Origin: Ignavibacteriota bacterium
Lineage (GTDB): Bacteria > Bacteroidota > Ignavibacteria > UBA10030
Direction of reading: 5' to 3'
NCBI GenBank assembly: GCA_963727825.1
Contig: CAVSHO010000009.1
Location: forward strand, 896,001 to 960,000
DNA length: 64,000 bases
The translations under genes were made by a program, and so were the position numbers. The notes below the pieces were generated by a model. The model was not told the origin of the DNA. It saw only the letters and a program-made list of their open reading frames with translations, and made no database searches. Shown piece by piece: positions 2,475 to 64,000 of this stretch (its first letter is position 1; the number at the start of each line of letters is the position of its first letter).

Positions 2475-3388
2475 CTAAAAATTCATTGTTAAACTAACAC
2501 CGGTTCCACGCGGTGTAATATTTGGCAAGATATGCACCTTAGCCTTTCCATCTCCGGAATCTATTATTGGCATTCCTTCGGGATGTGCGGCAAGCATTCC
2601 AAAATAATATCCGATGAAAAGTCCAAGCGGATAATCACTCACCCAATGGATGCCATTGCTTAACATGCCAAGCCCAACAAGACGTAGTGAATGCATATCC
2701 AACTGGACGAATCCATTTTTCATCTGGATAATTTTCTGCAACCACAATAACAGTCGCGATGGATGTACAAAGATGTCCGGATGGAAATGCGTCGAATTGA
2801 GGAACTCTGCGATGATAATCAATTTGATTGGGCAAGATTTTCCAAATTCCTGTTGGTGAAGTGCGTACAAACGGACTTTCTCGGCCTGTAACATGTTTGA
2901 GTAATTGTACCACAGCACCAGATGCAAGCACAGCTTGCACAATTTCACTCCCTGTTCTCAATGCTTTTTGATCTGTGAATACAAGCCCATATGCTCCTAG
3001 CGTTCCTGCAAGAGCAAACTGTGTTGTTCCTTCTCCCATGTTGGCACAAAAATCACTCAGATTTTTTGCAGATCGATGAACCGTAATAAAATTTAGCTGC
3101 CGGTGTATACGTAATATCATCCGTAAAATAAGTTCCCACAGTTAATCCACCAACAATAAGCCATTCATCAACTCGTTCTTTACAAAAGGAAATATCGTAC
3201 CAACGCTCCCAATCACGCGGAATGTTTTCAATCATTGTGTACCATTGAACATTTTCCGGTTCTTCTTTGTCTAAAATGGAAATTGAATCCGCCGAAGATG
3301 ATTTTTGTAAGTCTTGTGCTTGACTCTTGTAGATAGTACCGATTAATAAAATTATGAATAAAAACCATAGGAGAAATAAATGTCTCAT
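2475..3388 (-). CDS. PAP2-family phosphatase with signal peptide (split by two +1 frameshifts, probably sequencing errors)
   Basis: Fragments 3053-3388, 2635-3120 and the 3' part of 2475-2948 join into one protein with KxxxGRESP, FPSGH and HWVSD PAP2 motifs. Removing one base at about 3075 and one at about 2682 restores the frame. Confidence 0.85.
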
Positions 3389-3397
3389 ATTATCCTT

Positions 3398-4219
3398 TTA
3401 AAACTTTACGCTGAGAAGAAAACCGTATTGGTGTCCATCTGCCTGGGGCAGAATTGTGACATCGGAGGAGCCATAATTTAATTTTTCAACCAATTTTGTT
3501 TCATAATGTCCAATAATTGCGCCCAACAAAACAATCGCTCATCCAATGCGTGCTTTCTGTGACCGGCTAACGGCAGTAGCTGTCGCGAGTGAATAGCACA
3601 TGTAAGATACCCAAGGTTCAGTATAGAAATCGGAAATCGTTGTAGCAGCAGCAAATACTGTCGTTGTATGCCCAGAAGGAAAAGAATCAAAAGAAGAAAT
3701 TCCTTTGCCGTTCCCCTTTGATTTGCTGAAATATGCAAACGGTCCATACCAAAATCCGCCGTGTCGAGTTGCGGCGCTTGGACGTTCACGTCCGCAGAGA
3801 TATTTGAAGAATTGCACAGTAACACCGGTAAAAATGAAAGATTCAATACCAATTTTGCCAACTTCGAATGCTTTCTTATCCGTGAAAATCAATCCATATC
3901 CGGCAAACCCTCCGAATAATCCTACAGAGAACAAACCATTTCCAAGATTGGTAATAACCGGGCTAACATCTTTCACAATTTTGTGGTTCATCTTCCAACC
4001 ATATAAGTCATTATAGATTTGTTGATCATAATGAAATAGTAGAGCAGTTAATAGCTATAGCACCGGTGACACCAAGAACAATTGTAGCTGACGATGTTGT
4101 TGTCGCTGCACTATCGGAAATAGTTGATGTTAAAGGTTGTGAGAAACAAAAGCAGAACAAAGATAAGATTAAAAATAATAACTTTGATTATTGTGGTAAT
4201 CAAGCAGATAAACTTTCAT
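3398..4219 (-). CDS. Second PAP2-family phosphatase (several frameshifts)
   Basis: The 3539-3991 fragment has KYLCGRERP and SFPSGHTT. A hydrophobic N-terminus at about 4050-4219 and the C-terminus ...ILPQADGHQYGFLLSVKF* (stop 3398) lie in other frames. Confidence 0.8.
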
Positions 4220-4403
4220 TTTTTCGACCCAATTGAGAAATATGAATGTTAAACCTGATGGTAAAGTTATTTCCTCACATGAATGAAAGAATCTCAAGTT
4301 ACTCTTTTTCATGAGAAAAATATTTTTACACAAAGGGAAAAGAGTGGGCCATCTATCTCTTTATTGCCTAATATAATTTACGGTAATTTTATGAGATGTA
4401 ATA

Positions 4404-6934
4404 CTAAAATTCGATTTCGATTCCACCAACCGGGAAAAAAGAAAATTGGTATACAGTTTCACGTGTACCGTCACTACGGTATTCATAATAAAACACATTT
4501 TTTGTGTTCATCACATTCATAAGTGCAATATAAACATTGATATTCCAATTTTGCATATAGAACCTGCTGATCCATTGGATATCAAGACGGCTATAATCCG
4601 GATAACGAACAGAGTTGATTTGATCGGATGCTTTCCATGTTCCACGCGACCATTGAACCCCGCCTTCCCATACCTGTTCGCTTGTTGTCCATTCAATAGG
4701 TGTATATACCCCGCCAGTTTGATAACGATACTTGCAACTAATCTCCATTTCATCTGAAAATGGTAGAATATACAATGGGTATTTGATAAAGAACGACTGC
4801 TTATTAAGCCATGAACGGGCACCCTTTACAATCTTGCCGCCGACCAAATTAACAATCACTGGATAATCATACTGCGATGGGTATGTTTTTCCCACCATAC
4901 CAATGCGCGGATCATCATCAGTTGTTTTGGAAAGTGAAACACTAATTGTCCCATAATAGTTAGTCACCTGTTTTTTTTGTAAAGAAATTCTAATCCATAG
5001 GAATATCTTGTGCCCGACTGCAAGATTTTATCAGACCAGTTTGTATCGATTAAAGAATGAATATATTCCTCACTCACTGCGATGTTACTGAAAACTTCTT
5101 ATAATATGTTTCCACACTGAATTTTATACCTTCATCTAGAATATGCTGTAAACCAAGGACAATATGTTGAGATCTTTCATTCTCTAAATATTTATTGATT
5201 CCTAGATTTTTCCGGTCAGCATAATCCGGTAATGGCTGTGTCTGCCAATAATCTCCAGCCGATAATGAAAGTGTAGTTGTTACTGGAATTAATTCGTATG
5301 CAATACTTCCACGCGGACTGAATTGCCCTTGCCTGGAATATGAAAAGTAGTCATATCTTAAACCGAAAGTTAGATTAAAACTCGGTGTAATACGATATTT
5401 ATCGCTTATGTATGCAAACATTTTATTTGCATCGCCGAAACTTAAAGAGTTAGTAATATCACCGTATGGGGAATTTGTATACACATAAGATGTATCATAA
5501 GGATTTTGAATGTTGCGTTTATAACGTGTCTGACTTCCTAAAAATGTCGATGTACCAATCCAATGGTTTGTTGTCTGAATTTGAGTGCCAACCATAAGAT
5601 CATGCTTGGGGTGAATTTGATAAAACAGCTCATATTTTATCGCATAAAAGGCTTCATCATCATGCGAATTATATACATCCTGTGAATTTATTATTTTTGC
5701 CGCTTCAACGTTTCCTTTATCATTGTAGACGAGATGATAATAATTATCCAGCGCATCCACATTATATTGGTTTCCAACGGTGTAGAGAGAAAGAGTAGAA
5801 TATCCCTCTTTTCCCCATAGACTTTTTAAATTGATGCCAAGAGCATATTGTTTATCATGGACATTATCATTCTCTAAACTCGCTTGAATATATCCGAATT
5901 TTCGCGGCTCGCATCCTGCTGATTAGGATCTCCTTTAATATAGATACGGCTATCTCCATAAAGACCATTCAGCGAAAGTTTTTGTGTCGGCGAAAGATCG
6001 TATACAACCTTTGTTTGTGCATCCCAATATTTCGGAATTGCTGTCAAGAGAGAGAGCAGACATTCCCACTAATTTGTCAATAACTTCCAAGAAGCTTTGG
6101 CGTGCGGAAAAAATCCATGATCCCCTTCCATCTGCCAATGACCCCTCCATCAATGTCCCGAAACCTGCCATATTAAACCCAGTATTTGATGCAAATCCCT
6201 TATTCCGATCTCCCTCACGAATTGTTATATCCATTACTGAAGACATTTTATCGCTGTACTGCACAGGAAATCCGCCGGCAGAAAATTGAACATCTTCCAC
6301 AAAATCAATGTTGATCATATTAATCGGACCAGCAGAATTAAATTCATTTGGATAATGATTAATAGAAGGAATTTCCATGCCTTCCATAACTGTCAGGTTT
6401 TCGTACGGTGCACCGCCGCGTACAATAAGTTCATTGACATTATCATTAGAGCTGGCAATACCGGGCAGATTCTGCACAACCCGCTGTACATCCATGTATA
6501 GATCCGGGCTGACGTTTTACTTCTGCGCGGTCGTAATTATTTACGCTTAATGGAGCTAATTGATTATTTCTAGTAAAATAATTTGCCTGTATTGTCATAC
6601 CGGAAACTTCAACCGTTTGTTCATTCAATTTGATTGTTACTTTGGTACTGCGTCCGGTCGATACGACAATATTTGTTACAATAATGCTTTCATAACCGAC
6701 GATCGTTGCTTTCAAACTAAACGAGCCAACAGAAATTCCTTTAATACAGAAATTACCAGATGAATCTGATGTAGCGCCGAAAGTCGGTTGTTCTACAACC
6801 TGTACATTAACGGCAGGTAAGGGTTCCTGAGTTTTTCCGTCTACAACATGCCCGACAATGTCGCCTTTGAATGATTGTGCGGAGAGTTGGAATGCAGCAA
6901 GGCATACAAAAACAATAAATGCAACAGGTTTCAT
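4404..6934 (-). CDS. TonB-dependent receptor with N-terminal carboxypeptidase-regulatory-like domain (frameshifted into at least 4 fragments)
   Basis: Signal peptide and GxVVDGKTQEPLPAVNV domain; plug DVQRVVQNLPG...VRGG...ENL...FSAGGFPVQY; barrel GLRYDYF, YSRLDI; terminal Phe (GIEIEF*). Confidence 0.88.
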
Positions 6935-7041
6935 ATTTCTTTAATCGATTATTGGATAAAGTGAGAAACCTAAATTTAATTAAAAAAGCAACGAATTCGT
7001 TCGTCAGAATGGAATTCAGATGCCTCTGGTATTGTCACTTA

Positions 7042-7069
7042 AAACGAACGTTGTGTCAAAAAAGTTACA
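7042..7069 (-). promoter_or_regulatory. Putative ECF-sigma promoter of the TonB receptor gene
   Basis: Minus strand reads TGTAAC-N17-CGTTT, matching the generic ECF AAC/CGT pattern, about 110 bp upstream of the receptor start. Confidence 0.4.
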
Positions 7070-7390
7070 ATTATGTAGAAAGTTCGATAGTGAAATGATA
7101 AAGACATTTGCACTTTCGTTGTTTTAATCTTACTAATTTAACATACACAGTAAAATGAAAATAACTTTAACGATTTCGGTAAATAATGGAAGTAAGCCGG
7201 TGAATGGAAGATATAGGAAAAAAGGATTTTACATATAGCTAATGTAAAACATTGCAATCCAATATTATTCCACTGATCAAAAAAAACATCTATTACAATT
7301 CAATTCTGAATAAAATCTTTATATCGTAAAAGCAATAATCATTACATTCTAATTAAAAAGACTGATGGTTCTGTGTTCCTGTCCGACTAC

Positions 7391-7875: not shown

Positions 7876-8232
7876 CTATGCTTTAATCATTACAAGGATC
7901 ATTTTGAATTTTGTAATTGCCCTTACTGAATGCGGCTGATTTGCTGGAAGCAACAACATTTGTCCTGCGTGCAACCGATGTGAAATTATTGAAATAGATA
8001 TTTCGGCTTCGCCTTCTATCATAAGAACAAGTGCATCAAAAGGCACTGTATGTTCGCTCAAACCTTGGTTTTTATCAAAAGCAAATGCGGTTACATTGCC
8101 GCCAGACTGTTTCAACAATGTGCGGCTGACTACAGTACCGGTTTGATATTGAACAAGCTCAGCTTGCTGAAGAACGCCGCTGATTGTTGATAAATCATCT
8201 ATGTTTGTTGACATTTTCGTTACACCAAACAT
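7876..8232 (-). CDS. Cupin domain protein
   Basis: FAFDKNQGLSEHT...EGE...PANQPHSVRA cupin motifs; likely start at MSTNID. Confidence 0.9.
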   Translation of the reverse strand: MFGVTKMSTNIDDLSTISGVLQQAELVQYQTGTVVSRTLLKQSGGNVTAFAFDKNQGLSEHTVPFDALVLMIEGEAEISISIISHRLHAGQMLLLPANQPHSVRAITKFKMILVMIKA

Positions 8233-8269
8233 TTGTGATATAATATTAAGTTATTCGACAAAAGATTGC

Positions 8270-9928
8270 TTATTCATAACTTTCCTCACCTCGTATTTGC
8301 ACGCGTCTTATTTTACCGCTGATAGTTTTTGGAAGCTCCGTGACAAATTCCACAATCCTTGGGTACTTATATGGTGCGGTAACTTTCTTTACATGATTTT
8401 GCAACTCGCGTGCCAATTTATCGCTTGGCTGATAGTTCTTTGAAAGAACAACAGTTGCCTTCACGATTTGACCGCGTTCATCATCTGGAACAGCAGTAAT
8501 GGCACATTCCAATACTGCCGGGTGTTCCAATAATGCGCTCTCCACTTCAAACGGACCAATTCGGTAACCGGAACTTTTTATAATGTCATCAGCCCTGCCA
8601 ACAAACCAGTAATAACCATCTTCATCACGCCATGCCGTATCGCCTGTGTAATAGATGTTATTCTGCCATACACTTTTTGTAAGCCCTTCGTCCCGGAAAT
8701 AACCATCGAACATCCCTACTGGCTTTCTCTTCTTAGTATAAATTACAATCTGGCCAATTTCACCTACCTCGCATACCTTACCGTCTGGATCAATAAGATC
8801 GATATCGTAACCAGGCGATGGTTTTCCCATAGAACCTGGTTTTGGTTCCATCCACGGATAAGTTGCTACGGCAACCGTGCATTCTGTTTGTCCATAACCC
8901 TCCATTAATCGAATGCCGGTGGTTTCAAGGAATTGTTTGTACACCTCAGGGTTCAATGGCTCGCCTGCAACGACACAATATTTCAATTGGCTCAAATCAT
9001 ACTGTGTCAAATCCTCTTTTATTAAAAATCTGTAAATGGTTGGCGGTGCACAAAATGAGGTTACGTGGTACTTCTCAATAACTTTCATTAAATGTTTCGG
9101 AACAAATTTGTCGTAGTCGTACGTCATCACAGCGCATCCCGACAACCACTGACCATATATTTTTCCCCAAGCTGATTTTGCCCATCCGGTATCCGCAACT
9201 GTAAAGTGAAGACCATTGTCTTGCACATTTTGCCAGTATTTTGCCGTAGGAATATGTCCAAGGGGATACGCAAAGTTATGATTTACCATCTTGGGCATTC
9301 CAGTTGTGCCGGATGTAAAATAGAGAAGCATTGTATCATTTATTGTTACTTTTTCCCCAAGTGATTTTTGATTGAATACCTCCGGACTTTTTTCCATTTC
9401 TTCGGTCAAGTTCAACCACCCTTCACGCGATGCACCAATCAAAGCTTTATACTTTAAAGTTGGTGATTTTGCAATTGATTCTTCCACATGCTGAACAACA
9501 TCCGGTTCCGATACACTAACAATCATTTTTATATCTGCGGCATTATTTCTATATATAATATCTTTTGTACTTAGGAGGTGAGTTGCAGGAATGGTAATCG
9601 CTCCGATTTTATTTAAGGCGAGTGTACAAAACCAATATTCATAACGACGTTTCAAAATAAGCATCACAGGATCGCCTTTACAGATGCCTATTGATTGAAA
9701 GAAATTTGCAGCTTTGTCACTGAAACGTTTCATTTGTCCAAATGTAAAGGTTTCTTCTCCTCCTTTGTCGTCACACCACACCATTGCAATTTTATCGGGA
9801 GTTTTAAGGGCGATTTCATCAACTACGTCGAATGCAAAGTTGAAATGTTCTGGTATTCGAATCTCAAATTTATCGATGAATTCTTGATATGAATTGAAGT
9901 CTGTTTGTGAAAGATATTTATCAAGCAT
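8270..9928 (-). CDS. AMP-forming acyl-CoA synthetase (medium-chain/acetyl-CoA synthetase-like)
   Basis: [12 protein letters not shown]-loop, [32 protein letters not shown] and LPKTISGKI. Confidence 0.95.
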
Positions 9929-45664: not shown

Positions 45665-47500
45665 TTATATCGCGTGTTCCGTTTCTTTCTTTTTCTTCTT
45701 TGCTTCACCGTTTCCGTTTGATTGCCATACAAACAATCCACGCTTCTCGTATGTTGTGTGTAGAAGATTGTGCGACATATGCCCCAATGGTTCTTTTAAG
45801 AACTCTTTGTATAGCGTCGCAATTTGAGGATTCTCATGTGACTTACGAATCGGTTTGTTGGAATCCTCCAGATAAATAGATTCGGCTCTTTTCTTCTTTA
45901 TTTCCCATGTAGTAGGAATCGGCTGACCGCCACCACCAAGGCATCCGCCCGGACAAGTCATCACTTCGATAAACGCATATGGTGATTCCTTCTTTTCTAT
46001 TTGTTCGAAAAGCTTCCGTGCATTACCCAGCGTATGTGCTACCGCAACTCTGACCTTTGTGCCGTTCATATCGACTTCTGCTTCTTTGATGCCTTCCATT
46101 CCACGGACAGCGGTGAAATTGATGTTTGCAAGCGTTTTACCGGTAACAACTTCATACGCGGTTCTTAGTGCAGCTTCCATGACACCACCTGTTGCTCCGA
46201 ATATCACCGCAGCACCTGTGGATTCACCCAACGGGCTGTCGAATTCTTCGGCTGGAAGATCAGAGAATTGAATTCCTGATTCCTTGAACATCCGGGCAAG
46301 CTCTCTTGTTGTCAGCACATAATCAACATCATAAAACGCATCGTCTTGTGACCATCCCTTCTTATCTTTCCAATGCTCGAAGGCGCTCATCATTTCAGGG
46401 CGCTTTGCTTCGTATTTCTTTGCTGTGCAAGGCATAATTGAAACGACGACCATCTTTCGCGGATCTATTCCCATCTTTGCTGCATAATATGTTTTCGCTA
46501 CCGATCCGAACATTTGCTGCGGTGATTTACATGTAGATAGATGAGCAAGCGAGTTTGGAAAGAAATGTTCGGCAAACTTGATCCATCCGGGCGAGCAAGA
46601 GGTGATCATTGGAAGGGTACCTTTGTTCGTGATGCGTTTGATTAATTCATGGCCTTCTTCCATAATAGTAAGATCTGCAGTAAACTGTGTATCGAAGACT
46701 TTATTGAAGCCGAGTCTACGTAAACCGGCGACCATCTGGCCTGTCACAAGAGCGCCGGGCCCCATTCCCATGGCTTCTCCAATGCCAACACGAATTGCAG
46801 GTGCAGTTTGCACAACGACAACTTTATCCGGATTCAAAAGGTCTTCAAATACTTCATTTGTGTCGTCCCGTTCAACAATAGCTCCAGTGGGACACACTAG
46901 TGCGCATTGACCGCAATTAGTGCAGGCAACATTTCCAAGACCTTTTTCCATGTAAGTTGAAATCTTAGTTTTAATGCCGCGTCCGGATAAACCGATTGCA
47001 TACACTGTTTGAATGTTGCCGCAGACAGCAATACACCGGCCGCATAAGATACATTTGTTAGGATCTCTAATTATGGCAGGCGAGGTCTCATCACAAAGCT
47101 GTTCTTTTTTCGTCCGAACAAAGCGACTCTCTTTTATACCTAATTCAGAAGCAATAGCCTGCAATTCGCAATTCTGGTTGCGCAGGCATGAAAGACAATC
47201 TTTTGGATGGTTAGCAAGAATTAATTCAACATTCGTTTTTCTTGCATCACGGATACGTGCTGAGTTCGTTACAATCTCTGTTCCCTCGTGCACACAGGCG
47301 GTACAGGAACGAACAAGTGATCGCGCACCTTTCACTTCAACAACACAAACTCCGCACGAAGAATTTCTAGAAACATCCTCAAGATAACAAAGCGTCGGTA
47401 TTTCGATTCCCGCCCGTTTGCAGGCATCGAGGATCGTGATACCATCGGGAGCCTGATAATCTTTACCGTTAATTTTAATATTGATCATCTTCGTTTCCAT
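45665..47500 (-). CDS. hydA: [FeFe] hydrogenase catalytic subunit, group A (HydA/HndD-like)
   Basis: N-terminal [2Fe-2S], His-ligated [4Fe-4S] (HPKDCLSC) and two [4Fe-4S] clusters; H-cluster motifs TSCSPGW, MPCTAKKYE and EVMTCPGGCLGGGGQP; small-subunit tail RKSHENP. Confidence 0.97.
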   Translation of the reverse strand: METKMINIKINGKDYQAPDGITILDACKRAGIEIPTLCYLEDVSRNSSCGVCVVEVKGARSLVRSCTACVHEGTEIVTNSARIRDARKTNVELILANHPKDCLSCLRNQNCELQAIASELGIKESRFVRTKKEQLCDETSPAIIRDPNKCILCGRCIAVCGNIQTVYAIGLSGRGIKTKISTYMEKGLGNVACTNCGQCALVCPTGAIVERDDTNEVFEDLLNPDKVVVVQTAPAIRVGIGEAMGMGPGALVTGQMVAGLRRLGFNKVFDTQFTADLTIMEEGHELIKRITNKGTLPMITSCSPGWIKFAEHFFPNSLAHLSTCKSPQQMFGSVAKTYYAAKMGIDPRKMVVVSIMPCTAKKYEAKRPEMMSAFEHWKDKKGWSQDDAFYDVDYVLTTRELARMFKESGIQFSDLPAEEFDSPLGESTGAAVIFGATGGVMEAALRTAYEVVTGKTLANINFTAVRGMEGIKEAEVDMNGTKVRVAVAHTLGNARKLFEQIEKKESPYAFIEVMTCPGGCLGGGGQPIPTTWEIKKKRAESIYLEDSNKPIRKSHENPQIATLYKEFLKEPLGHMSHNLLHTTYEKRGLFVWQSNGNGEAKKKKKETEHAI

Positions 47501-47509
47501 GTTATCCTC

Positions 47510-50500
47510 TTAGTTATCTTCTTCTTGGTGGCATTTGACATCACATCGCAGACAACGAGCAGCTTCCTGCAGGGCTTCTTCTCCGGAATACCCGCCCAGA
47601 ACTTCTTGAAAACTTGAAATTCGTTCCTTGACAGGAAGTTTTTGTGGGTTGATTTTTTTGCCGCCTTCCGGTTCAGGAATCACTTCATCTTTATATTTGA
47701 AATCCCTAAATAACCGATGAAATCGTTTCTCCTTCATCAAATCTATATCAATCGCTTCTGCCGCTTGGCGGGCAAGTCCCATAGCTTCAGAGACCGTCGC
47801 CGGTCCGGAAACTGCATCGCCGCCGGCATAGACCTTAGGTAAGTTAGTCCTGCAGCTTGGCTGTTGCACTTTGATAGAACCATTCTTTCTGAGTTCCAGA
47901 CCAATTTCCTTTGCGGATTCAAATTCAACTTTCTCACCGAGGGAGAGAATAATCGTATTGCATTCCACTATTGCAGTCTCGCCGGTTTCTATCGGTTTCT
48001 TTCGCCCGGTATTATCGAAACCGTCGAACTTCATTTTATGAATTTCAAGGCCTGTAACTTTTCCTTTTATATCACTGATGGCTCGATGTGGTGCAGACAA
48101 AAATATAAACCGGATGTTCTCGTCTATAGCATCTTTAATTTCATGAGCATTAGCCGGCATCTCATCTTTATCGCGGCGATAGACAATCGTCACATCGGTA
48201 CCGAGCCGCAGACATGAGCGTGCTGCATCAATTGCTACATTCCCAGCGCCAACGACAACAACCTTCTTTCCAAGATGAAGTTTCTTCCCGCTCGCAAATT
48301 TCTCAAGGAATTCATAACCTTGAAGAACTCCTGTTAGATGTCTGCCCGGAATATCAAGTTCAATATCTTTCTGAGCACCGATAGCAAGGAAGACAGCATC
48401 ATTCTGCTTTTGCAGATTCTTGAATGAAAATTCTTTGCCAATATGCGTATTGAAGACGAATTTTACACCAAGTTTTCTAAAGAGTTCAAGTTCTTTATTG
48501 AGACCATCTTTCGGTAAACGATATGCTGGAATTCCGTATTGTAGAATTCCGCCTGCTTTTGCATGATTATCATATACTGTGACGTTATGACCCAGACGAA
48601 CGAGAAAATATGCTGCAGTCAATCCGGCGGGCCCTGCCCCGACAATTGCAATTTTCTTACCTGTAGGGGATAGCTTTTCTTTTATCAACCGCTGATAAGT
48701 TTCTCGCTCCTTGCCCATTTTGTACATTGTATCTGCAAGATAGCGGTGAATATCGCCTTGTGAGACCGGATCATCTACCATATCTCTTCGGCATCGCAAT
48801 TGGCAATGGAAGTAGCAAATTCTTCCGACTGTACCAGGTAAAGGATTATCACGCAGTGTGAGTTCAAATGCTTCTTCGATCCGTCCTTCTTTTAAAAGTT
48901 GAAGGTACCCGGGAATGTTCATATGCATTGGACAGCTATTTTCACATAGTGCCATGAACAAGCTCTCACATACACCAGCTTTACACCGCTTTTGAATTAT
49001 ATGTTTTTCGTATTCATCGCGGAAGTAACGCAATGTGCTCAATACCGGATTCGAACTCGTTTGTCCCAAACCGCAAAGTGCAGAATCTCGAATTACATAA
49101 GCTAATCGCTCAAGTGTATCTAAATCTTCCATGGTTGCTTCGCCGCGTGTGATTTTGTTGAGAAGCGCGAGTGCTTGCGCCAGTCCTTCGCGGCATGGCG
49201 TGCATTTCCCGCACGATTCAGCATAAGTTACTTCAACAAAGTAGCGTGCAACATCTACCATACAATTATCCTGATCCATTACGACCATACCACCTGAACC
49301 CATGATCGTACCGAGTTTCGTTAGAGATTCATAATCTACCGGTGTATTGAAATATTCAACTGGAATGCAGCCACCCGACGGACCACCTGTTTGCACTGCA
49401 CGAATTTTCTTTTTGTTACCCGTGCCTTCGCCCATCTGATAAATTATATTTTCCAGCGGTGTACCAAGCGGCAATTCAACAAGGCCGGTGTTCTTAATTT
49501 TTCCAACAAGTGAAAATACTTTTGTTCCTGTGCTGGTTTGTGTTCCAAACTTTGCAAATGCATCTCCGCCAATCGTTAGAATGAGAGGGATATTGATCCA
49601 TGTTTCCACATTATTGATATTGGTCGGTTTGCCCCACAACCCTTTTTGTGCAGGATACGGCGGCCGCGGAAGAGGTCTACCTGCTCTCCCTTCGATCGAT
49701 GCAATAAGCGCGGTTTCCTCTCCACATACAAACGCACCAGCCCCTTCCACATACGACATATCGAAGCTGAACGAAGATCCAAAAATGTTCTTTCCCAGAA
49801 TACCATATTCCTTCGCTGCGGCAACCGCTTTTTTAAATCGTTCAACAGCAAGCGGATACTCGGCTCTTACATACATCACACCTTCAGAAGCACCCATCAC
49901 GTACGCACCGATCAGCATTCCTTCGATAAGTGCATGGGGGTCGCTTTCAATTTCGTTTCGATTCATATAAGCGCCCGGATCACCTTCGTCAGCATTACAG
50001 ATAATATATTTTTTATCCGTTTCGACTTTCTTCATCATTTCCCATTTAATAGCTGTCGGGAAGCCGGCGCCGCCGCGTCCACGCAATTTTGATTTCTTGA
50101 CCTCATCGAGAACAGAATCAGGCGTCATTTGCGTTAACACCTTCATCAAGGCGCTGTAACCGCCGACAGCGATATAATCTTCGATATCTTCCGGATTGAT
50201 TAATCCGGAATCACGAAGGACGATCTTCTTCTGCCCTTTGAAGAATGGAATTTCATTCCAAAGAGGAACACTACTCAGCCCGGTTCCGAACTCTACTCTC
50301 GAGGTATAAAAATTCCAATTTTCGATTCTGCATAATGCCTTCTTCAGCGGTATCATTCCCCTGCAAAGACCATCAACAATACTCTCGGCATCCTTCGGGA
50401 TAACTTTGTGTAGAATGACAAGCGGCTGTCCCGGGACATAACAATTGACAAGTGTCTCTTCAGCACAAAAACCGAAGCAGCCTATAAGCGTTAATTGAAT

Positions 50501-50671
50501 CTTTGCTCTTTTTGCTCTAATAGCTTTCTGTAGACTTTCATATACTTCTTTTGCCCCGTTGCCGAGACCGCATGTTCCCATACCGACGGAAATTTTTGGT
50601 ACGTCGGGAAGAAATTTTGCCAATCCCTGTTGCCTAATCTTTTCCAATGTTGAAGCATCATGTATCTTCAT
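47510..50671 (-). CDS. hydB: NuoF/HydB-like FMN/NADH subunit fused to a GltD-like FAD/NAD(P)H module
   Basis: Thioredoxin-like 2Fe-2S domain; LRGRGGAGFPT, NADEGDPGA, GAFVCGEETAL, GGPSGG and ESCGKCTPCREG. Then CENSCP...GRICYFHCQLRCRR, GAGPAGL, GAGNVAIDAAR, VYRR, YAGGD and EAARCLRC. Confidence 0.93.
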   Translation of the reverse strand: MKIHDASTLEKIRQQGLAKFLPDVPKISVGMGTCGLGNGAKEVYESLQKAIRAKRAKIQLTLIGCFGFCAEETLVNCYVPGQPLVILHKVIPKDAESIVDGLCRGMIPLKKALCRIENWNFYTSRVEFGTGLSSVPLWNEIPFFKGQKKIVLRDSGLINPEDIEDYIAVGGYSALMKVLTQMTPDSVLDEVKKSKLRGRGGAGFPTAIKWEMMKKVETDKKYIICNADEGDPGAYMNRNEIESDPHALIEGMLIGAYVMGASEGVMYVRAEYPLAVERFKKAVAAAKEYGILGKNIFGSSFSFDMSYVEGAGAFVCGEETALIASIEGRAGRPLPRPPYPAQKGLWGKPTNINNVETWINIPLILTIGGDAFAKFGTQTSTGTKVFSLVGKIKNTGLVELPLGTPLENIIYQMGEGTGNKKKIRAVQTGGPSGGCIPVEYFNTPVDYESLTKLGTIMGSGGMVVMDQDNCMVDVARYFVEVTYAESCGKCTPCREGLAQALALLNKITRGEATMEDLDTLERLAYVIRDSALCGLGQTSSNPVLSTLRYFRDEYEKHIIQKRCKAGVCESLFMALCENSCPMHMNIPGYLQLLKEGRIEEAFELTLRDNPLPGTVGRICYFHCQLRCRRDMVDDPVSQGDIHRYLADTMYKMGKERETYQRLIKEKLSPTGKKIAIVGAGPAGLTAAYFLVRLGHNVTVYDNHAKAGGILQYGIPAYRLPKDGLNKELELFRKLGVKFVFNTHIGKEFSFKNLQKQNDAVFLAIGAQKDIELDIPGRHLTGVLQGYEFLEKFASGKKLHLGKKVVVVGAGNVAIDAARSCLRLGTDVTIVYRRDKDEMPANAHEIKDAIDENIRFIFLSAPHRAISDIKGKVTGLEIHKMKFDGFDNTGRKKPIETGETAIVECNTIILSLGEKVEFESAKEIGLELRKNGSIKVQQPSCRTNLPKVYAGGDAVSGPATVSEAMGLARQAAEAIDIDLMKEKRFHRLFRDFKYKDEVIPEPEGGKKINPQKLPVKERISSFQEVLGGYSGEEALQEAARCLRCDVKCHQEEDN

Positions 50672-51189
50672 GACTTTTTCCGTCCCTTCGATATTTTACT
50701 AAGAAGTTTCTGCAATTTAGAGGTTGTTACATTGCTGTAAATAACCCCGTCAATCGCTACGACAGGTGCGAGCGCGCACTGGCCGAAACATGCTACCGTG
50801 GAAATTGTGAATTGATTGTCCGGTGTTGTAAAGAACGATTCTCCCTCTTCAAGCGCTTTGCTGCATCCCAACATTAATCCCAGATCATCGAGCAACGCTT
50901 TTGATCCCTTTGTGTGGCAGGCAGTTCCCCTGCAAACTGTTAGTGTGTGTTTGCCCTGAGGTTTGAGATTGAAGAACGAAAAGAAAGTAACGACGTTGTA
51001 CACTCGGGAGAGTGGAACGCCGGTTCGGAGAGCAACATGGTTAAGAGCTTCCTCGGAAAGAAATTTTTGTTCGCAGAGAAGTTGTGTCTCCTCAAGTATA
51101 CTTAACAATTCACCGTGCTGCCCCTTGTGTTTTGTAATGACTGAATCGATTTCCTGTAATTCTCGCGACAACGTTTGAGTTCCGTTCAT
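50668..51189 (-). CDS. hydC: NuoE/HydC-like [2Fe-2S] subunit
   Basis: VTFFSFFNLKPQG, CRGTACH and ACFGQCALAP; ATGA overlap with hydB. Confidence 0.95.
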   Translation of the reverse strand: MNGTQTLSRELQEIDSVITKHKGQHGELLSILEETQLLCEQKFLSEEALNHVALRTGVPLSRVYNVVTFFSFFNLKPQGKHTLTVCRGTACHTKGSKALLDDLGLMLGCSKALEEGESFFTTPDNQFTISTVACFGQCALAPVVAIDGVIYSNVTTSKLQKLLSKISKGRKKS

Positions 51190-59510: not shown

Positions 59511-59807
59511 ATGTCAGACATTTCATTAGACGCACTTGGCATGGTCGAAACCAAAGGACTTGTCGGCGCAATCGAGGCAGCCGATGCTATGGTCAAGGCG
59601 GCTAAAGTAACACTGATCGGCAAAGAACAAATTGGCGGCGGATATGTAACCGTTATGGTGCGCGGCGATGTTGGTGCCGTGAAAGCAGCAACTGATGCCG
59701 GAGCAGCAGCGGCACAGCGTGTTGGCGAATTAGTGTCGGTGCATGTTATTCCGCGTCCGCACAGTGATGTGGAAACCATTCTGCCTAAACGTCCAGCACA
59801 AAAATAG
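59511..59807 (+). CDS. Bacterial microcompartment hexameric shell protein (EutM/PduA-like BMC-H)
   Basis: [24 protein letters not shown]...[20 protein letters not shown]...HVIPRPH. Confidence 0.97.
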
Positions 59808-59875: not shown

Positions 59876-60499
59876 ATGGTTGACTATGCTCTTGGCTTAG
59901 TGGAAACCAAAGGACTCGTTGCCGCTATTGAAGCGGCTGACACGATGGTGAAAACTGCCAATGTCATTTTGATTGGTAAGGAAATAACGCGAGGCGCACT
60001 CGTAACAATCAAAATCGTTGGTGACACTGCGGCAGTACGTTCCGCGGTTGAAGCCGGAGCAGCGGCTGCACAACGTATTGGCGAACTCGTTTCCAAGCAT
60101 ATCATTCCGCGTCCTGGAGATGGATTGGAAGAATTGATCTTTGCAAAAAGTCAACTTACGCAAAATGAAGTAGAACAAATTTTCAGCAGAGAACCTGCGT
60201 TGCTAGTAAAAAAGGATTTTCCTCCTCAAGAAGAAGAACCTATCGCACTACAAAACGAGAATGATGATAAGGTTAATGTAGAACCCAAGGAAGAACCGGT
60301 TCAGGAAGAATTGTACACGATGCCGGAGGGGTTGACTCCAGAACTGCAAGCGTACTTCAAACAGTTAGATTTAATGCCCGTGCATGAGTTACGCCGTTTT
60401 GCGCGAACCGTTGAAGGACTACCGATTTATGGCAGACAGATTTCTCGGGCCAATAAAAAGGAATTAGTTGAAGAGTTATTGAAAGCAAAGAAGGTATAG
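59876..60499 (+). CDS. BMC-H shell protein with acidic linker and C-terminal helical (Rho_N/HeH-like) extension
   Basis: BMC domain (aa 1-88), Glu/Pro-rich linker, then LDLMPVHELRRFAR...GRQISRANKKELVEEL. Confidence 0.9.
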   Translation: MVDYALGLVETKGLVAAIEAADTMVKTANVILIGKEITRGALVTIKIVGDTAAVRSAVEAGAAAAQRIGELVSKHIIPRPGDGLEELIFAKSQLTQNEVEQIFSREPALLVKKDFPPQEEEPIALQNENDDKVNVEPKEEPVQEELYTMPEGLTPELQAYFKQLDLMPVHELRRFARTVEGLPIYGRQISRANKKELVEELLKAKKV

Positions 60500-60664: not shown

Positions 60665-61559
60665 ATGAATAAAGGAGCTTGGTACGCTGTCGGTGCATAC
60701 ACTTGCTGGGGATTGCTTCCAGTATACTGGAAGCTGCTTCACCATGTTACCTTCGGTGCAATTGCTTGGGCATCGTATTGTCTGGTCATTCGTTGCGTTG
60801 ATGATAATAATTTTGCTCATGCGGCAATGGAATTCATTTCGATCTGCAGCTCTCGCCCCTCGAGTATTGCGCATTTATATTGCCGCAGCGGCACTCATCG
60901 GAATTAACTGGCTCACGTATGTATGGGCTGTCAATTCAAATCATATGGTGGAAACAAGTCTTGGGTATTTCATCAATCCGCTGCTGAGTGTCTTAATGGG
61001 TGTGATTTTCTTTCGCGAACGATTGCGTCCGTGGCAGTGGGTTCCTGTCGTGCTTGCGGCGGCCGGGGTAGTCTATCTCACGATTGTCTTCGGTTCGTTG
61101 CCGTGGATTGCGCTCACTCTAGCTTTTTCATTTGGGCTGTATGCTGTCGTCAAAAAAATTGCACCGCTTATATCACTTTATGGATTAATATTGGAAACAA
61201 GTATTCTGCTTCTTCCGGCAACGGCATATCTTGTTTATTCGGATACAACCGGCAGCGGCGTGTTTTTACATTTGGGAATCATATCCGATCTTCTATTGAT
61301 TGGCGCGGGATTGACAACCACCATTCCCTTGCTAATGTTTTCTTCTGCAACGCAGCGCATTCCACTTTCGCTTATCGGTATTTTGCAGTACATCTCACCA
61401 ACCCTGCAATTTCTTCTCGGCGTCTTTGTTTACAGGGAATCGTTTTCGTTTACGCAATTCATCGGCTACAGTATTGTCTGGGTAGCGCTAATTCTGTTCG
61501 GCCTGGAGGGATATTCTGCCTATCGCTCGCAATCTGTCGCGGAAGCGGAGATAGAATGA
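60665..61559 (+). CDS. rarD: RarD family EamA transporter (one +1 frameshift at about 60748)
   Basis: MNKGAWYAVGAYTCWGLLPVYWKLL joins HRIVWS...INWLTYVWAV...SLGYFINPL...LQYISPTLQF. Confidence 0.92.
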
Positions 61560-61688
61560 AGAGAAAATGTAATAAGTATGTTTATGTAATAAAGAAACAG
61601 GTAAAAAAAGATTGAGTGATTGTATTATAATTGATTTAGTTAAATATAGCTGGGATTATGAGAAAAGAGGATGAAGGATAAAAAAGGG

Positions 61689-62849
61689 TTAATCGTAATC
61701 CTTTAAATAATATTTAGTTTTAGTTTCACCAGTAACCTCAGTTTCTTCAAGCTTTTCTATACAATGAAAAATATAGTTCTTTGAACCAACTGTAATTCCG
61801 TTAAGATCTACTACGGTATCGGGAAGAAGGCAACCGCTAAAATATTTATTGTCTTCATTTGTTTGTAACGTCCAATATCCAGATTTTATGTTTATTTTTA
61901 TAATTTTACCCTCGAGGTTAACATTTTCAATTTCATATTCTCTTATTGTCTGTAATTTGTCATATAAGGGAATTGCGCGGGACCGTTGAATAGAATGAGA
62001 GACGATTTTTTTGGATTGCGGATTTATCCAAGAATAAGAAATGGGACTGTTGTTTGATATAATGAATTCTAGCAGTTTTAAGTAATTACTAAAAAAATGC
62101 CCGCGGTTTTCTTTTAATACACTTAATGACTGTTCTGGATTGTCGACCAGCTCAAGTATGGCGTCAAGCTTATTCAGAGCGCGGGAAATATCAACATATC
62201 CAAAAGCGTCTACAAACATTTTAGCTCTAAGGTGAACCTCAAAAGAAGCTGGTGCAAAGGCATAAACATCTGTTTGATAATTTTCTGGAGTGTCTAGTTG
62301 TTTTTTTAACTTCTTGTCTGTTAAATCTTTAATAGCCTTTTTATATGAAAACTTTAAAAGGTTTTGAAATATAAGAAGACCTTGAGCCAATTTTATTGTA
62401 GAAATTGCATGGTCACGAATTGCTTCTGGTGGATTAAAATCTAAATGAATTACGGCGGTGTTTTGTAAAAGAGAATCATGAAGAAGTTGTTTGTCTTTTT
62501 TGTTTGTGAAAGAATTAATAATAATACCGTGATCAGGTAACCATGATTCAGTGACGGCTTCCTTTGCTATAGAATCAATCGTTAATGATTCTGTGCCATA
62601 GGAATTAGTGCGAAGCAAATAATACTCTCCGAGTTCTGGTTCCTCAAATAGAGTTCTTAGATCGCATTCTCCAGAAAAAAGAAGATTTAATCTTTCTGGC
62701 GACAATGCTATTGTAAGGAATTCATCATATTGACCAGAACGATTTATTAGTTGGCATAAGTACTTTGTGCCGAGCAAGTCTTGTGCTAAAAACAACACGG
62801 GACCATCAAAATACATTAACGTTCGCAGTATATTTATTTGCTTCTTCAT
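61689..62849 (-). CDS. DUF6575-like protein with a possible C-terminal OB-like domain
   Basis: N-terminus LMYFDGPVLFLAQDLLGTKYLC...LSPERLNLL.SGECDLRTLF resembles DUF6575 (recalled, not searched). C-terminus LEGKIIKINIKSGYWTL is beta-rich; AT-rich gene. Confidence 0.65.
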   Translation of the reverse strand: MKKQINILRTLMYFDGPVLFLAQDLLGTKYLCQLINRSGQYDEFLTIALSPERLNLLFSGECDLRTLFEEPELGEYYLLRTNSYGTESLTIDSIAKEAVTESWLPDHGIIINSFTNKKDKQLLHDSLLQNTAVIHLDFNPPEAIRDHAISTIKLAQGLLIFQNLLKFSYKKAIKDLTDKKLKKQLDTPENYQTDVYAFAPASFEVHLRAKMFVDAFGYVDISRALNKLDAILELVDNPEQSLSVLKENRGHFFSNYLKLLEFIISNNSPISYSWINPQSKKIVSHSIQRSRAIPLYDKLQTIREYEIENVNLEGKIIKINIKSGYWTLQTNEDNKYFSGCLLPDTVVDLNGITVGSKNYIFHCIEKLEETEVTGETKTKYYLKDYD

Positions 62850-63250
62850 TTAGGCATAGAACAACGAGGGATAGGATCAAAGTTTCTGTCATTCCACCAG
62901 TCGTGATGTGTCTGACCCGCATCAATCGGAGAATGTTTAATTACCCCAGCTTCATTACTGAGAGTTATCGATATTATTAAATGTGGGTTGTTTTTAAAAA
63001 AGGGTATCTTATTAAGTGCGATACAATCTTCAATAGATAAAAAGATTGATAAAGCTCTGGCTGCGCATTCGTCGAGAAATATCCTTCGGGAATTTAATTT
63101 TTTGGGGGAATGAAAATCTGTCTGTGTTGGTGGAAAACTTTTTACTAATCGATAGAATGATTTTCCATTGGGAAGCTCAACGTCAAGAGGTGGACATCCC
63201 TCGGGCAACTCTTCAGCCCATTGAAAATCAGTGAGATTATTATTGGCCAT
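62846..63250 (-). CDS. Small hypothetical protein, possible ADP-ribosyltransferase-like fold
   Basis: WAEELPEGCPP, FYRLV, DF.S, C.ARALSIF and HHDWW; ATGA overlap with the downstream gene. Confidence 0.6.
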   Translation of the reverse strand: MANNNLTDFQWAEELPEGCPPLDVELPNGKSFYRLVKSFPPTQTDFHSPKKLNSRRIFLDECAARALSIFLSIEDCIALNKIPFFKNNPHLIISITLSNEAGVIKHSPIDAGQTHHDWWNDRNFDPIPRCSMPK

Positions 63251-63621
63251 TTAGTAGAATAAAGCTCAGTTGTTTGATATGTAAAATATAAGTTTTTGCT
63301 GAAATCGCAACCTATCAATTGAAAAGTATTGATAATGAAGTAATATTAAAGTAAATCAGAAATATTGAAGAATGATAATAAAAGGTTGACGAGATATTTC
63401 TTAAATTGTTCCGAGAAAAGGAATAAAAGTCTCATATACATCTCACAATACGTGTAAAACATAAGAAACGCTTATATTTTTTATTGGTTAACCTCTTGCA
63501 GAAGTAATTCCCCGATAGAGAACATTGGAGCAGGCAGCGATAGGCTCTTGGTATAGAAAGAGTTCGAATAAAGGCAAAGAATCCAATTTAAGAGTAAGTA
63601 TCTAAAATCTGTTTGCTCTGT

Positions 63622-64000
63622 CTATTTTTTCAAAGCCGCCTTGGAAAAAAGATATTCAGGTATGATGGTATCAAGAATAATGGAGTCGGTAAGAAACTCT
63701 GTTCCCGCGCCATCTTTGAAGACATCTTTATACAAGACCGACTTTGCTATCCATCGGCTCTGAACTTCCATTACTTCACGCACATCGATCGTCTTCAAGA
63801 GCTTGCCGCTCTTGGCGCAGAGATTTTCTTTCAAAAAAACAAAGCGCATTTTATCAACCCAAACTTTCCGGCTCTCATAGGCGATATCTTCCTTTTTAGC
63901 AGCGAGGTCTAATACCCAGCACGGACGTCCACTCACGGTTTCTTCAGATGCGATTTTTGCCGTGTAGAGATTGGGCAAATGCGGGTCTTCCATCATGTCC
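63622..64000 (-). CDS. Outer-membrane lipoprotein-sorting (LolA-like) protein, 5' end outside the window
   Basis: DMMED...GRPCWVLDL.AK...AYESRKVWVDK...SGKLLK...IPEYLFSKAALKK. Confidence 0.85.
   Translation of the reverse strand, partial: DMMEDPHLPNLYTAKIASEETVSGRPCWVLDLAAKKEDIAYESRKVWVDKMRFVFLKENLCAKSGKLLKTIDVREVMEVQSRWIAKSVLYKDVFKDGAGTEFLTDSIILDTIIPEYLFSKAALKK

Follow-up and report, generated by a model that had tools for sequence, protein, structure and literature searches.

A probable distant relative of the PD-T4-10 phage-defence module in an Ignavibacteriota genome, with a predicted hold of its small protein on its DUF6575 partner

A pair of minus-strand genes, here called A and B, lies near the end of a 64,000-nucleotide stretch of the genome of an Ignavibacteriota bacterium (assembly GCA_963727825.1, contig CAVSHO010000009.1, positions 896,001 to 960,000), which we refer to as the window. 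The stop of gene A and the start of gene B share the four bases ATGA, which suggests that the two are translationally coupled (Table 1). The pair is AT-rich, having 34.8% GC compared to 40.6% across the whole window, and is preceded by a long spacer of still lower GC content; a LolA_like gene flanks it on one side and an EamA-family gene on the other. The overlap, the AT-rich composition, the long spacer and the two flanking genes, the EamA-family one under the name rarD, had been picked out in an earlier note made from the letters of the window, which read the pair as an undescribed toxin-antitoxin or anti-phage module in which A is an ADP-ribosyltransferase (ART) toxin and B its antitoxin or sensor. 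Our analyses bear out the class of system but not its novelty and, probably, not its polarity. The module probably belongs to the PD-T4-10 family of two-gene, toxin-antitoxin-like abortive-infection systems, as a divergent copy gained by horizontal transfer, with A the presumed antitoxin and B the presumed toxin by analogy with a homologue from Escherichia coli.

Protein A has no direct match in Pfam, in PADLOC (E≤1) or in NCBIfam (E≤1), and its only hit among the PHROGs has an E-value of about 0.2. A word-index search returned a single relative, of 93% identity, while an exhaustive phmmer search of 1.84 billion representatives recovered 910 of them at E≤1e-3 (counted at 50% clustering) and 242 at E≤1e-10, nearly all between 120 and 170 residues long; the family extends far past the reach of current PADLOC models. 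The top phmmer hit, P0006, was rejected as a homologue, being a protein of 2945 residues with Ser/Val/Gly-rich tandem repeats and 28 matched stretches, and hence a compositional false positive. We aligned 130 sequences (alignment A1), comprising window A and 129 of the 150 hits listed. Left out, by a list that is a reconstruction, were P0006 and the longer or partial hits P0013, P0018, P0020, P0030, P0032, P0035, P0042, P0043, P0058, P0060, P0077, P0080, P0087, P0090, P0098, P0108, P0114-P0116, P0119, P0126, P0138, P0147, P0149, P0151 and P0153.

Six residues of A are invariant in all 130 sequences (C19, P20, R34, G102, H115 and W119), and a further seven nearly so: C62 and S68 (129 each), W118 and F46 (128), P21 (127), D45 and L15 (126). 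The motifs to which the earlier note had drawn attention, LPEGCPP (residues 15-21), FYRLV (32-36), ALSIF (66-70) and HHDWW (115-119), are all present and hold key residues from this set, and they are therefore not chance features. LPEGCPP does not form a leader, as had been supposed, for the N-terminus is acidic, the hydrophobicity of A over any 19 residues reaches a maximum of 1.29, which is not membrane-like, and throughout the family the motif recurs unchanged as an internal element. None of the 130 relatives has a convincing Pfam match, but 91 of them match the PADLOC model PD-T4-10_A, with a best E-value of 2.2e-13.

Protein B is linked to the same system by a more direct route. Its N-terminal residues 11-128 match the Pfam domain DUF6575 (PF20215) at 42 bits against a gathering cut-off of 26.6, as had been guessed by eye, and the domain is matched by all 11 of the B relatives (best E 4e-16). 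Residues 6-137 match PADLOC model PD-T4-10_B with an E-value of 5.3e-5 (profile positions 18-145 of 353), and this model too is matched by 11 of the 11 aligned members of the family, at best with 1.3e-12. The PADLOC scan proposed in the earlier note thus ties B to PD-T4-10 in its own right, and A through its relatives. Word-index searches gave nine close relatives of B beyond the window's own entry, of about 380-400 residues, all with DUF6575. When 14 more diverse B proteins are aligned, D15, W103 and P105 are the only invariant residues of the N-domain. Outside DUF6575 the databases offer little: nothing in NCBIfam at E≤1, one PHROG hit with an E-value of about 0.2, and nothing significant in a profile search of Protein Data Bank (PDB) sequences (best E 0.01).

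The C-terminal part of B resembles another candidate. Residues 199-384 match PDC-M63B, the second component of a two-gene phage-defence candidate in PADLOC, with an E-value of 5.9e-6, and five of the 11 relatives match another PDC-M63B model (best E 2.1e-7). The likeness ends there, because only positions 126-308 of the 326 in the PDC-M63B model are covered, and PDC-M63A is matched neither by window A at E≤1 nor by any of its 130 aligned family members at E≤0.1. Two ideas on how B might act were tried and rejected. B as a whole has no hydrophobic segment (the 19-residue Kyte-Doolittle mean has a maximum of 1.06), which argues against a membrane toxin. An acidic catalytic cluster in the C-terminal part was suggested by E308, D333, E365 and E368/E369, which are invariant or nearly so among the 11 close relatives only; among the 14 more diverse sequences not one of these residues is invariant or near-invariant.

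The database copy of B (P0002, 375 residues) begins at Met12 of the 386-residue ORF, the two differing over window positions 62817-62849. Aligned homologues have N-termini of matching length, which favours the longer ORF with its ATGA overlap. A start at Met12 would delete that overlap and part of the segment predicted below to bind A.

The reference for this family is PD-T4-10 of E. coli ECOR65, given as two coding sequences (CDS) spanning 1604 bp in the original report (PMC9519451, Table S2). The gene-specific part of a published primer has an exact match in 13 of 5426 complete E. coli genomes. The E. coli locus analysed here (L005) encodes an A of 171 residues (5489-6004) and a B of 363 residues (6001-7092), with a four-base ATGA overlap and a total of 1604 bp; it is identified by the PADLOC models with E-values of 9.8e-76 for A and 1.3e-172 for B, and RefSeq labels its B a 'DUF6575 domain-containing protein'. 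In L005 (5489-9009) it forms part of a P2-like prophage, with a replication endonuclease gene on one side and a truncated portal pseudogene on the other, and is directly followed by an AIPR-family gene. Profile comparison with hhalign matches the A1 alignment to E. coli PD-T4-10A with 96.4% probability (E 1.4e-9, 116 columns), the Cys of the CPP element, the Arg, the Ser of 'EC...ALS', the Gly and the His all being kept, and an A1 hidden Markov model (HMM) finds the E. coli A ORF by hmmsearch at E 2.9e-11. The B-family profile matches E. coli B with 88.7% probability (E 2.6e-6), over residues 8-114 only.

The two loci also share their architecture: two genes on the same strand, a small A first, a DUF6575 protein of roughly 360-390 residues second, an ATGA overlap, similar total size (1562 bp in the window), homologous A families and B N-terminal domains, and a distribution that is mobile or patchy in both cases. 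They differ in that sequence identity is near the limit of detection, that E. coli A is longer by about 40 residues at its N-terminus and carries D-F in place of W118-W119, and that the window copy stands between housekeeping genes whereas the E. coli copy occupies a prophage hotspot. The module is accordingly not undescribed, the earlier note itself having held that a match to an already named system would remove its novelty.

PD-T4-10 is an experimentally validated anti-phage system. E. coli B is toxic alone and is fully neutralised by co-expressed A; A could not be deleted, while deletion of B abolishes resistance to T4; the defence is classed as abortive infection and covers T-even phages (PMC9519451). 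This is the inverse of the roles first proposed, with the small protein as toxin and the large one as antitoxin or sensor, and by analogy that assignment is probably inverted in the window. The same source states that neither protein has a predicted function, and its supplementary HHpred table gives no significant hit for either and no DUF6575 for B (PMC9519451). Its text lists DUF6575 without naming a system, so that the link between DUF6575 and PD-T4-10B is made here, through the RefSeq annotation and our own scans. A 2024 preprint still lists PD-T4-10 as of unknown function (10.1101/2024.10.26.620412), and we found no mechanistic study of PD-T4-10, DUF6575 or PDC-M63 in the literature searched.

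Several observations weigh against assigning the window pair to a working PD-T4-10 system. Window A does not match the PD-T4-10_A model at E≤1, and direct BLASTP comparison with the E. coli protein gives a marginal hit for A (36% identity over 36 residues, E 0.008) and likewise for B; membership therefore rests on transitive profile evidence. By hhalign and HMM, the alignment to E. coli B covers about residues 8-121, and the C-terminal 250 or so residues of window B have no match to it, although with a profile of just 6-11 sequences a very remote similarity could escape. Nor do these last 250 or so residues have a sequence match in Pfam, PHROGs, NCBIfam or the PDB. If toxicity sits in this half of the protein, the E. 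coli result may not transfer to window B. No defence island or mobile-element gene occurs among the 16 neighbours scanned (41098 to 63996). Finally, deletion of PDC-M63AB in its native E. coli host gave no measurable defence against the phages tried (PMC12409345). What the sequences do indicate is that the window pair is a distant relative of PD-T4-10, with A and the DUF6575 N-domain in common and the C-terminal part of B either different or diverged beyond recognition.

Horizontal acquisition is suggested by composition. Third-position GC (GC3) is 0.26-0.30 in the module and 0.33-0.48 in five adjacent genes, and low GC fits transfer from elsewhere, though there are no notable repeats or insertion scars around the module and no Rfam match at E≤0.1 across 61000-64000, including no tRNA-like RNA. 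The settings of relatives described in this and the next paragraphs (a prophage hotspot, the vicinity of a restriction enzyme and an ATPase, and three plasmids) point the same way. The hosts span Nitrospirae, Ignavibacteriales, Cloacimonetes, Cyanobacteriota, Actinomycetota and E. coli. That the two genes would occur together had been predicted, and in all seven loci with a full-length B (the window, L002, L003, L005, L006, L007 and L008), a small sample, an ORF of the A family lies directly upstream on the same strand. A genome scan from A, with a subset of eight sequences as query, gave four loci (L001-L004). Two of these, from Ignavibacteriales (L002) and Cloacimonetes (L003), have A followed by a full-length B; in L001, from a metagenome-assembled genome of Nitrospirae, A is followed by a DUF6575 stub of 147 residues (6363-6806); and L004, from Candidatus Parabeggiatoa, has only a fragment of A (residues about 5-57) and no B. 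The fragment has as neighbours genes for a PemK/MazF toxin and of the PD-(D/E)XK transposase-like kind (5980-6168, 6468-6767), and looks like a decayed copy in a toxin-antitoxin-rich patch.

With A as query, tblastn found one match among plasmids, an Oscillatoria plasmid on which A precedes a DUF6575 protein of 404 residues, and none among phage records. The independent route from B led to Rhodococcus and Arthrobacter plasmids and to a Mycobacteroides plasmid, L007 and L008 being reached from B alone. In Rhodococcus an A-family ORF ends exactly at the start of B (E 6e-27, own HMM), and on Arthrobacter plasmid pA58H3 (L008) one lies directly upstream of the DUF6575 gene (2049-2501, E 2.3e-7, own HMM); the latter ORF is missing from the gene table supplied with the plasmid. 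The Mycobacteroides plasmid (L009) carries a DUF6575 stub of 134 residues (2444-2848) without A. Such stand-alone N-domain proteins, in L001 and L009, may be decayed toxins or natural 'adaptor-only' forms.

Genomic contexts vary, from the prophage hotspot of E. coli and three plasmids to housekeeping flanks in the window and in L002, beside gyrB. In L003 the pair is flanked by a 1001-residue restriction-modification enzyme of Eco57I/MmeI type and an AAA_15 ATPase (2839-5844, 7941-8765), a defence-island context. In the window the scanned neighbours are housekeeping genes only. This isolation, together with the decayed copies elsewhere (the A fragment of L004 and the B stubs of L001 and L009) and the lack of measurable defence by PDC-M63AB in its own host (PMC12409345), would suit a different explanation, in which A acts as a plain stoichiometric antitoxin, its fold is particular to it and resembles that of ARTs by chance, and the cassette is selfish or addictive with no role in host defence, or is decaying. 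Both ORFs are intact, however, and every family-invariant residue is retained in the A and B of the window; the E. coli relative does defend against phage (PMC9519451). The structural comparisons described below cut both ways: for A, Foldseek gives neither a hit with E≤0.001 nor a TM-score as high as 0.5, but a single fold class accounts for all of the 12 best rows from the PDB, which chance would seem unlikely to produce. We regard this explanation as unlikely.

The interaction between the two proteins was modelled with the 130-row alignment for A and an 11-row alignment for B. Three runs gave ipSAE values of 0.89, 0.90 and 0.90 (median 0.90), while all three controls gave 0.00; of 157 solved complexes 116 attain this value, as do 2 of 215 mismatched pairs. 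Between runs at least 94% of contacts are in common, and the pLDDT of the partner is at least 87. Memory of a solved complex is an unlikely source of this result, since neither family has a significant sequence match in the PDB, where the lowest E-value is 0.98 with A and 0.01 with B. The models support binding of A to B. On B, the interface comprises residues 7-19, 33-45, 64-65, 82-86 and 102-113, plus 216 and 280, and apart from these last two it is confined to the DUF6575 N-domain, the sole part conserved with E. coli B. The three invariant residues of that domain, D15, W103 and P105, are all placed at the interface. On A, it comprises residues 35, 48-59, 64, 67-68, 78-87, 108-113 and 115. 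Definition is best for the contacts of B residues 13-16 (Y-F-D-G) with S68, L35 and H115 of A, and of B residues 105-106 with A residues 81-83; where S68 meets B residues 13, 14, 15 and 16 the expected error is 0.5-0.6 Å, and residue 35, next to R34, touches B residue 14. In these models, then, B would be gripped by the patch of A formed by S68, H115 and the neighbour of R34, which is where NAD+ would bind if A were an ART.

Whether A has that ancestry was examined through its fold. With the 130-sequence alignment, AlphaFold gives a confident, compact alpha/beta model (pLDDT 94.3, pTM 0.88), the single-sequence prediction being unusable (pLDDT 37.2). A strand at residues 30-36, bearing R34, is followed by three short helices, a strand at 67-70 bearing S68, two helices, and strands at 91-97, 102-106 (with G102) and 115-121 (with H115), an order which we take to agree with the ART core. 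In a Foldseek search of the PDB the 12 best rows are all of the ART fold, by our own assignment of the entries, with E-values of 0.5-1.0 and query-normalised TM-scores of 0.28-0.48; they include EcPltA, cholera toxin A1, three Tpt1/KptA entries, Tne2, ParT, pertussis toxin S1 and IcmQ. Lower down, RES toxins, heat-labile toxins, CDTa and C3 appear, interspersed with PCNA rows at a TM-score of about 0.14. The best row in the viral library BFVD is an unnamed protein (E 0.097, TM 0.49), and weak rows with names include an ADP-ribosyltransferase, a PARP catalytic domain, DarT, an RNA 2'-phosphotransferase and ART-PolyVal; in the ESM Atlas, Arr-ms is the closest cluster that bears a Pfam family, a lead only at a score of 0.78.

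The ART-like fold that the earlier note had called by eye thus has weak support, as a consistent preference among the best matches, but none of these has an E-value below 0.5 in the PDB, no hit in either the PDB or BFVD is significant, and sequence profiles give no link: not one of the 130 relatives of A has a hit to an ART family of Pfam at E≤0.1, alignment of the A1 profile by hhalign to E. coli KptA, which does have the ART fold, scores a probability of 0.1% (with a single-sequence template, of low sensitivity), and the one hit of the A profile in PDB sequences at E≤10 is a myoglobin (E 0.98). The R-S-(E) core proposed at the same time holds for its first two members, R34 and S68, but the third position, in strand 5, is the invariant H115, which presumably occupies the place of the catalytic Glu of R-S-E enzymes in the ART topology. 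It is followed by S/T/D and then W-W, with no conserved acidic residue, so that the canonical R-S-E or H-Y-E triad is incomplete. The models suggest that A probably derives from the ART fold, a judgement that we hold with slightly better than even confidence. No mention of an ART ancestry for PD-T4-10A was found in the literature searched, with supplements of preprints and subscription journals outside that search.

An ART fold would seem to invite the original proposal, in which A would be a toxin that ADP-ribosylates at the expense of NAD+ and B would serve as antitoxin or phage sensor. The toxin gene is the first of the two in DarTG and CmdTA, as gene A is here. With these and with ParST and Xre-RES, the module shares an operon of two genes, one of them for a small protein; the weak Foldseek matches include ParT, an Xre-RES toxin and a phage DarT, and their best rows are ART-fold toxins and enzymes (those named above from EcPltA to pertussis toxin S1), to which the BFVD rows labelled ART, PARP catalytic domain, DarT and Tpt1 and the Arr-ms lead can be added; and strand 1 of A carries an aromatic-Arg motif and strand 2 a Ser, the Arg invariant and the Ser nearly so. 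Yet a catalytic acidic residue and any profile-level similarity are both wanting, and B is neither a ParS-type nor an Xre protein and contains no macrodomain or other ADP-ribose-removing domain (none at E≤1, DUF6575 being its only Pfam domain). The relative tested in E. coli is an antidote and not a poison (PMC9519451). That modelled B covers the presumed active-site face of A would fit an inhibited toxin and a plain binding surface equally. A toxic A is quite improbable.

A third possibility keeps A as the antitoxin but makes it an enzyme, which would ADP-ribosylate B, for instance at Asp15 or Tyr13, or would use an NAD+/ADP-ribose pocket as a switch that senses infection. Enzymatic antitoxins, of which MntA with its action on HepT is an example, are the mark of type VII toxin-antitoxin systems; the resemblance is one of concept only, consisting in an enzyme-like antitoxin fold and in invariant polar residues that face a conserved toxin residue, whereas fold and chemistry are unrelated. 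A has unusually many invariant polar residues for a passive antitoxin (C19, R34, H115, C62 and S68), its likeness to the ART fold is weak but consistent, and in the predicted complex the invariant D15 and Y13 of B dock exactly on S68 and H115 of A. A second conserved cluster (E13, L15, P16, C19-P21, D45, F46, C62, W118 and W119; codon regions at window positions 63188-63226 and 62894-62899) lies off the predicted interface and would have some other role, candidates being a metal site, a ligand pocket and a surface that senses the trigger. On the other side, binding alone explains invariant residues at an interface, the fold matches in the PDB all have E≥0.5, the canonical catalytic Glu is absent, A has no sequence-profile link to any ART family, and E. 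coli PD-T4-10A has D-F where window A has W118-W119. We think an enzymatic antitoxin improbable, and place no more weight on its broader form, in which the PD-T4-10A family as a whole would be an unrecognised minimal branch of the ARTs that works as an antitoxin, gripping its DUF6575 toxin by the old NAD+-site face and acting either by ADP-ribosylation of Asp15/Tyr13 or by release triggered by NAD+ or ADP-ribose. T-even phages carry ADP-ribosyltransferases of their own.

The mode of action that we favour for this probable PD-T4-10 relative draws on sequence, models and analogy in turn. The sequence shows A and B to form one operon, read as a single transcript, and ATGA suggests that their translation is coupled. 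A is predicted to dock on the DUF6575 N-domain of B by its S68/H115 face, next to R34, and to clamp the invariant L-x-Y-x-D-G segment and the W-x-P loop of its partner. By analogy with the E. coli homologue, bound A would keep B harmless, and free B would be toxic; on phage infection A may be lost, displaced or inactivated, so that B is freed or activated, and the C-terminal module of B would then halt growth of the infected cell and block the spread of the phage. That a conserved A and DUF6575 are joined to different C-terminal modules suggests that DUF6575 is the regulatory half, an adaptor on which A docks, and that the C-terminus is an exchangeable effector, here of PDC-M63B type.

Although PD-T4-10 has been validated as a toxin-antitoxin system against phage, no function had been predicted for either of its proteins, as its reports describe it (PMC9519451; 10.1101/2024.10.26.620412). 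What the window adds is a branch of B with a different C-terminal module and a residue-level model of how A may hold B. The model yields residue hypotheses that can be tested, setting the S68/H115 face of A against Y13, D15, W103 and P105 of B, and raises the possible ART ancestry of the antitoxin. Should both the ART link and an enzymatic role prove true, this would be a new way to control a toxin; otherwise the locus is one more divergent copy of a known system.

Table 1. Positions in the window of the A-B module, of selected codons and domains, and of its flanking genes.
Feature	Position	Strand	Remarks
Gene A	62846..63250	minus	134 aa; presumed antitoxin
Gene B	61689..62849	minus	386 aa; presumed toxin
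ATGA overlap, gene A stop / gene B start	62846..62849	minus	4 bases common to both ORFs
Codons C19-P20-P21 of A	63188..63196	minus	part of invariant 'ELPxxCPP' element; outside modelled A-B interface
Codon R34 of A	63149..63151	minus	YR motif, end of strand 1; 130/130
Codon S68 of A	63047..63049	minus	strand 2; 129/130; best-defined modelled contact with B residues 13-16
Codon H115 of A	62906..62908	minus	start of strand 5; 130/130; touches B residue 13 in complex model
B residues 1-137, DUF6575 N-domain	62439..62849	minus	common with E. coli PD-T4-10B; predicted A docking site
B residues 199-384, C-terminal module, presumed effector	61698..62255	minus	resembles PDC-M63B, not E. coli PD-T4-10B
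Spacer upstream of gene A	63251..63621	minus	371 bp, AT-rich, 30.5% GC
EamA-family transporter gene	60693-61559		flank of A-B pair
LolA_like gene	63622 to beyond 63996		flank of A-B pair

The promoter of the module presumably lies within the spacer upstream of gene A. The particular string put forward for it, TTGCGA-N16-TATTTT, is present but falls below the threshold of our scan, which found 11 promoter-like sites compared to 8.6 ± 2.6 in shuffled sequence and so no excess. A site scan found nothing terminator-like around the module.

The 16 scanned neighbours are housekeeping genes, including those for BMC shell proteins, a sigma factor, a cation efflux protein, a TonB receptor, an FeFe-hydrogenase cluster, Dxr and RseP. 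Two BMC-domain shell genes (PF00936, E 6e-30 and 4e-26) lie on the plus strand at 59511-59807 and 59876-60499, just upstream of the EamA gene; the second has a long acidic, Pro/Glu-rich C-terminal extension, and the scanned neighbours of the pair include no obvious microcompartment enzyme genes. On the minus strand at 45665-51189, the gene for an FeFe-hydrogenase large subunit adjoins genes for a 1053-residue fusion of NuoF-like and pyridine-nucleotide-disulphide oxidoreductase domains and for a NuoE-like 2Fe-2S protein, and together these look like a hydrogenase cluster of the electron-bifurcating type.

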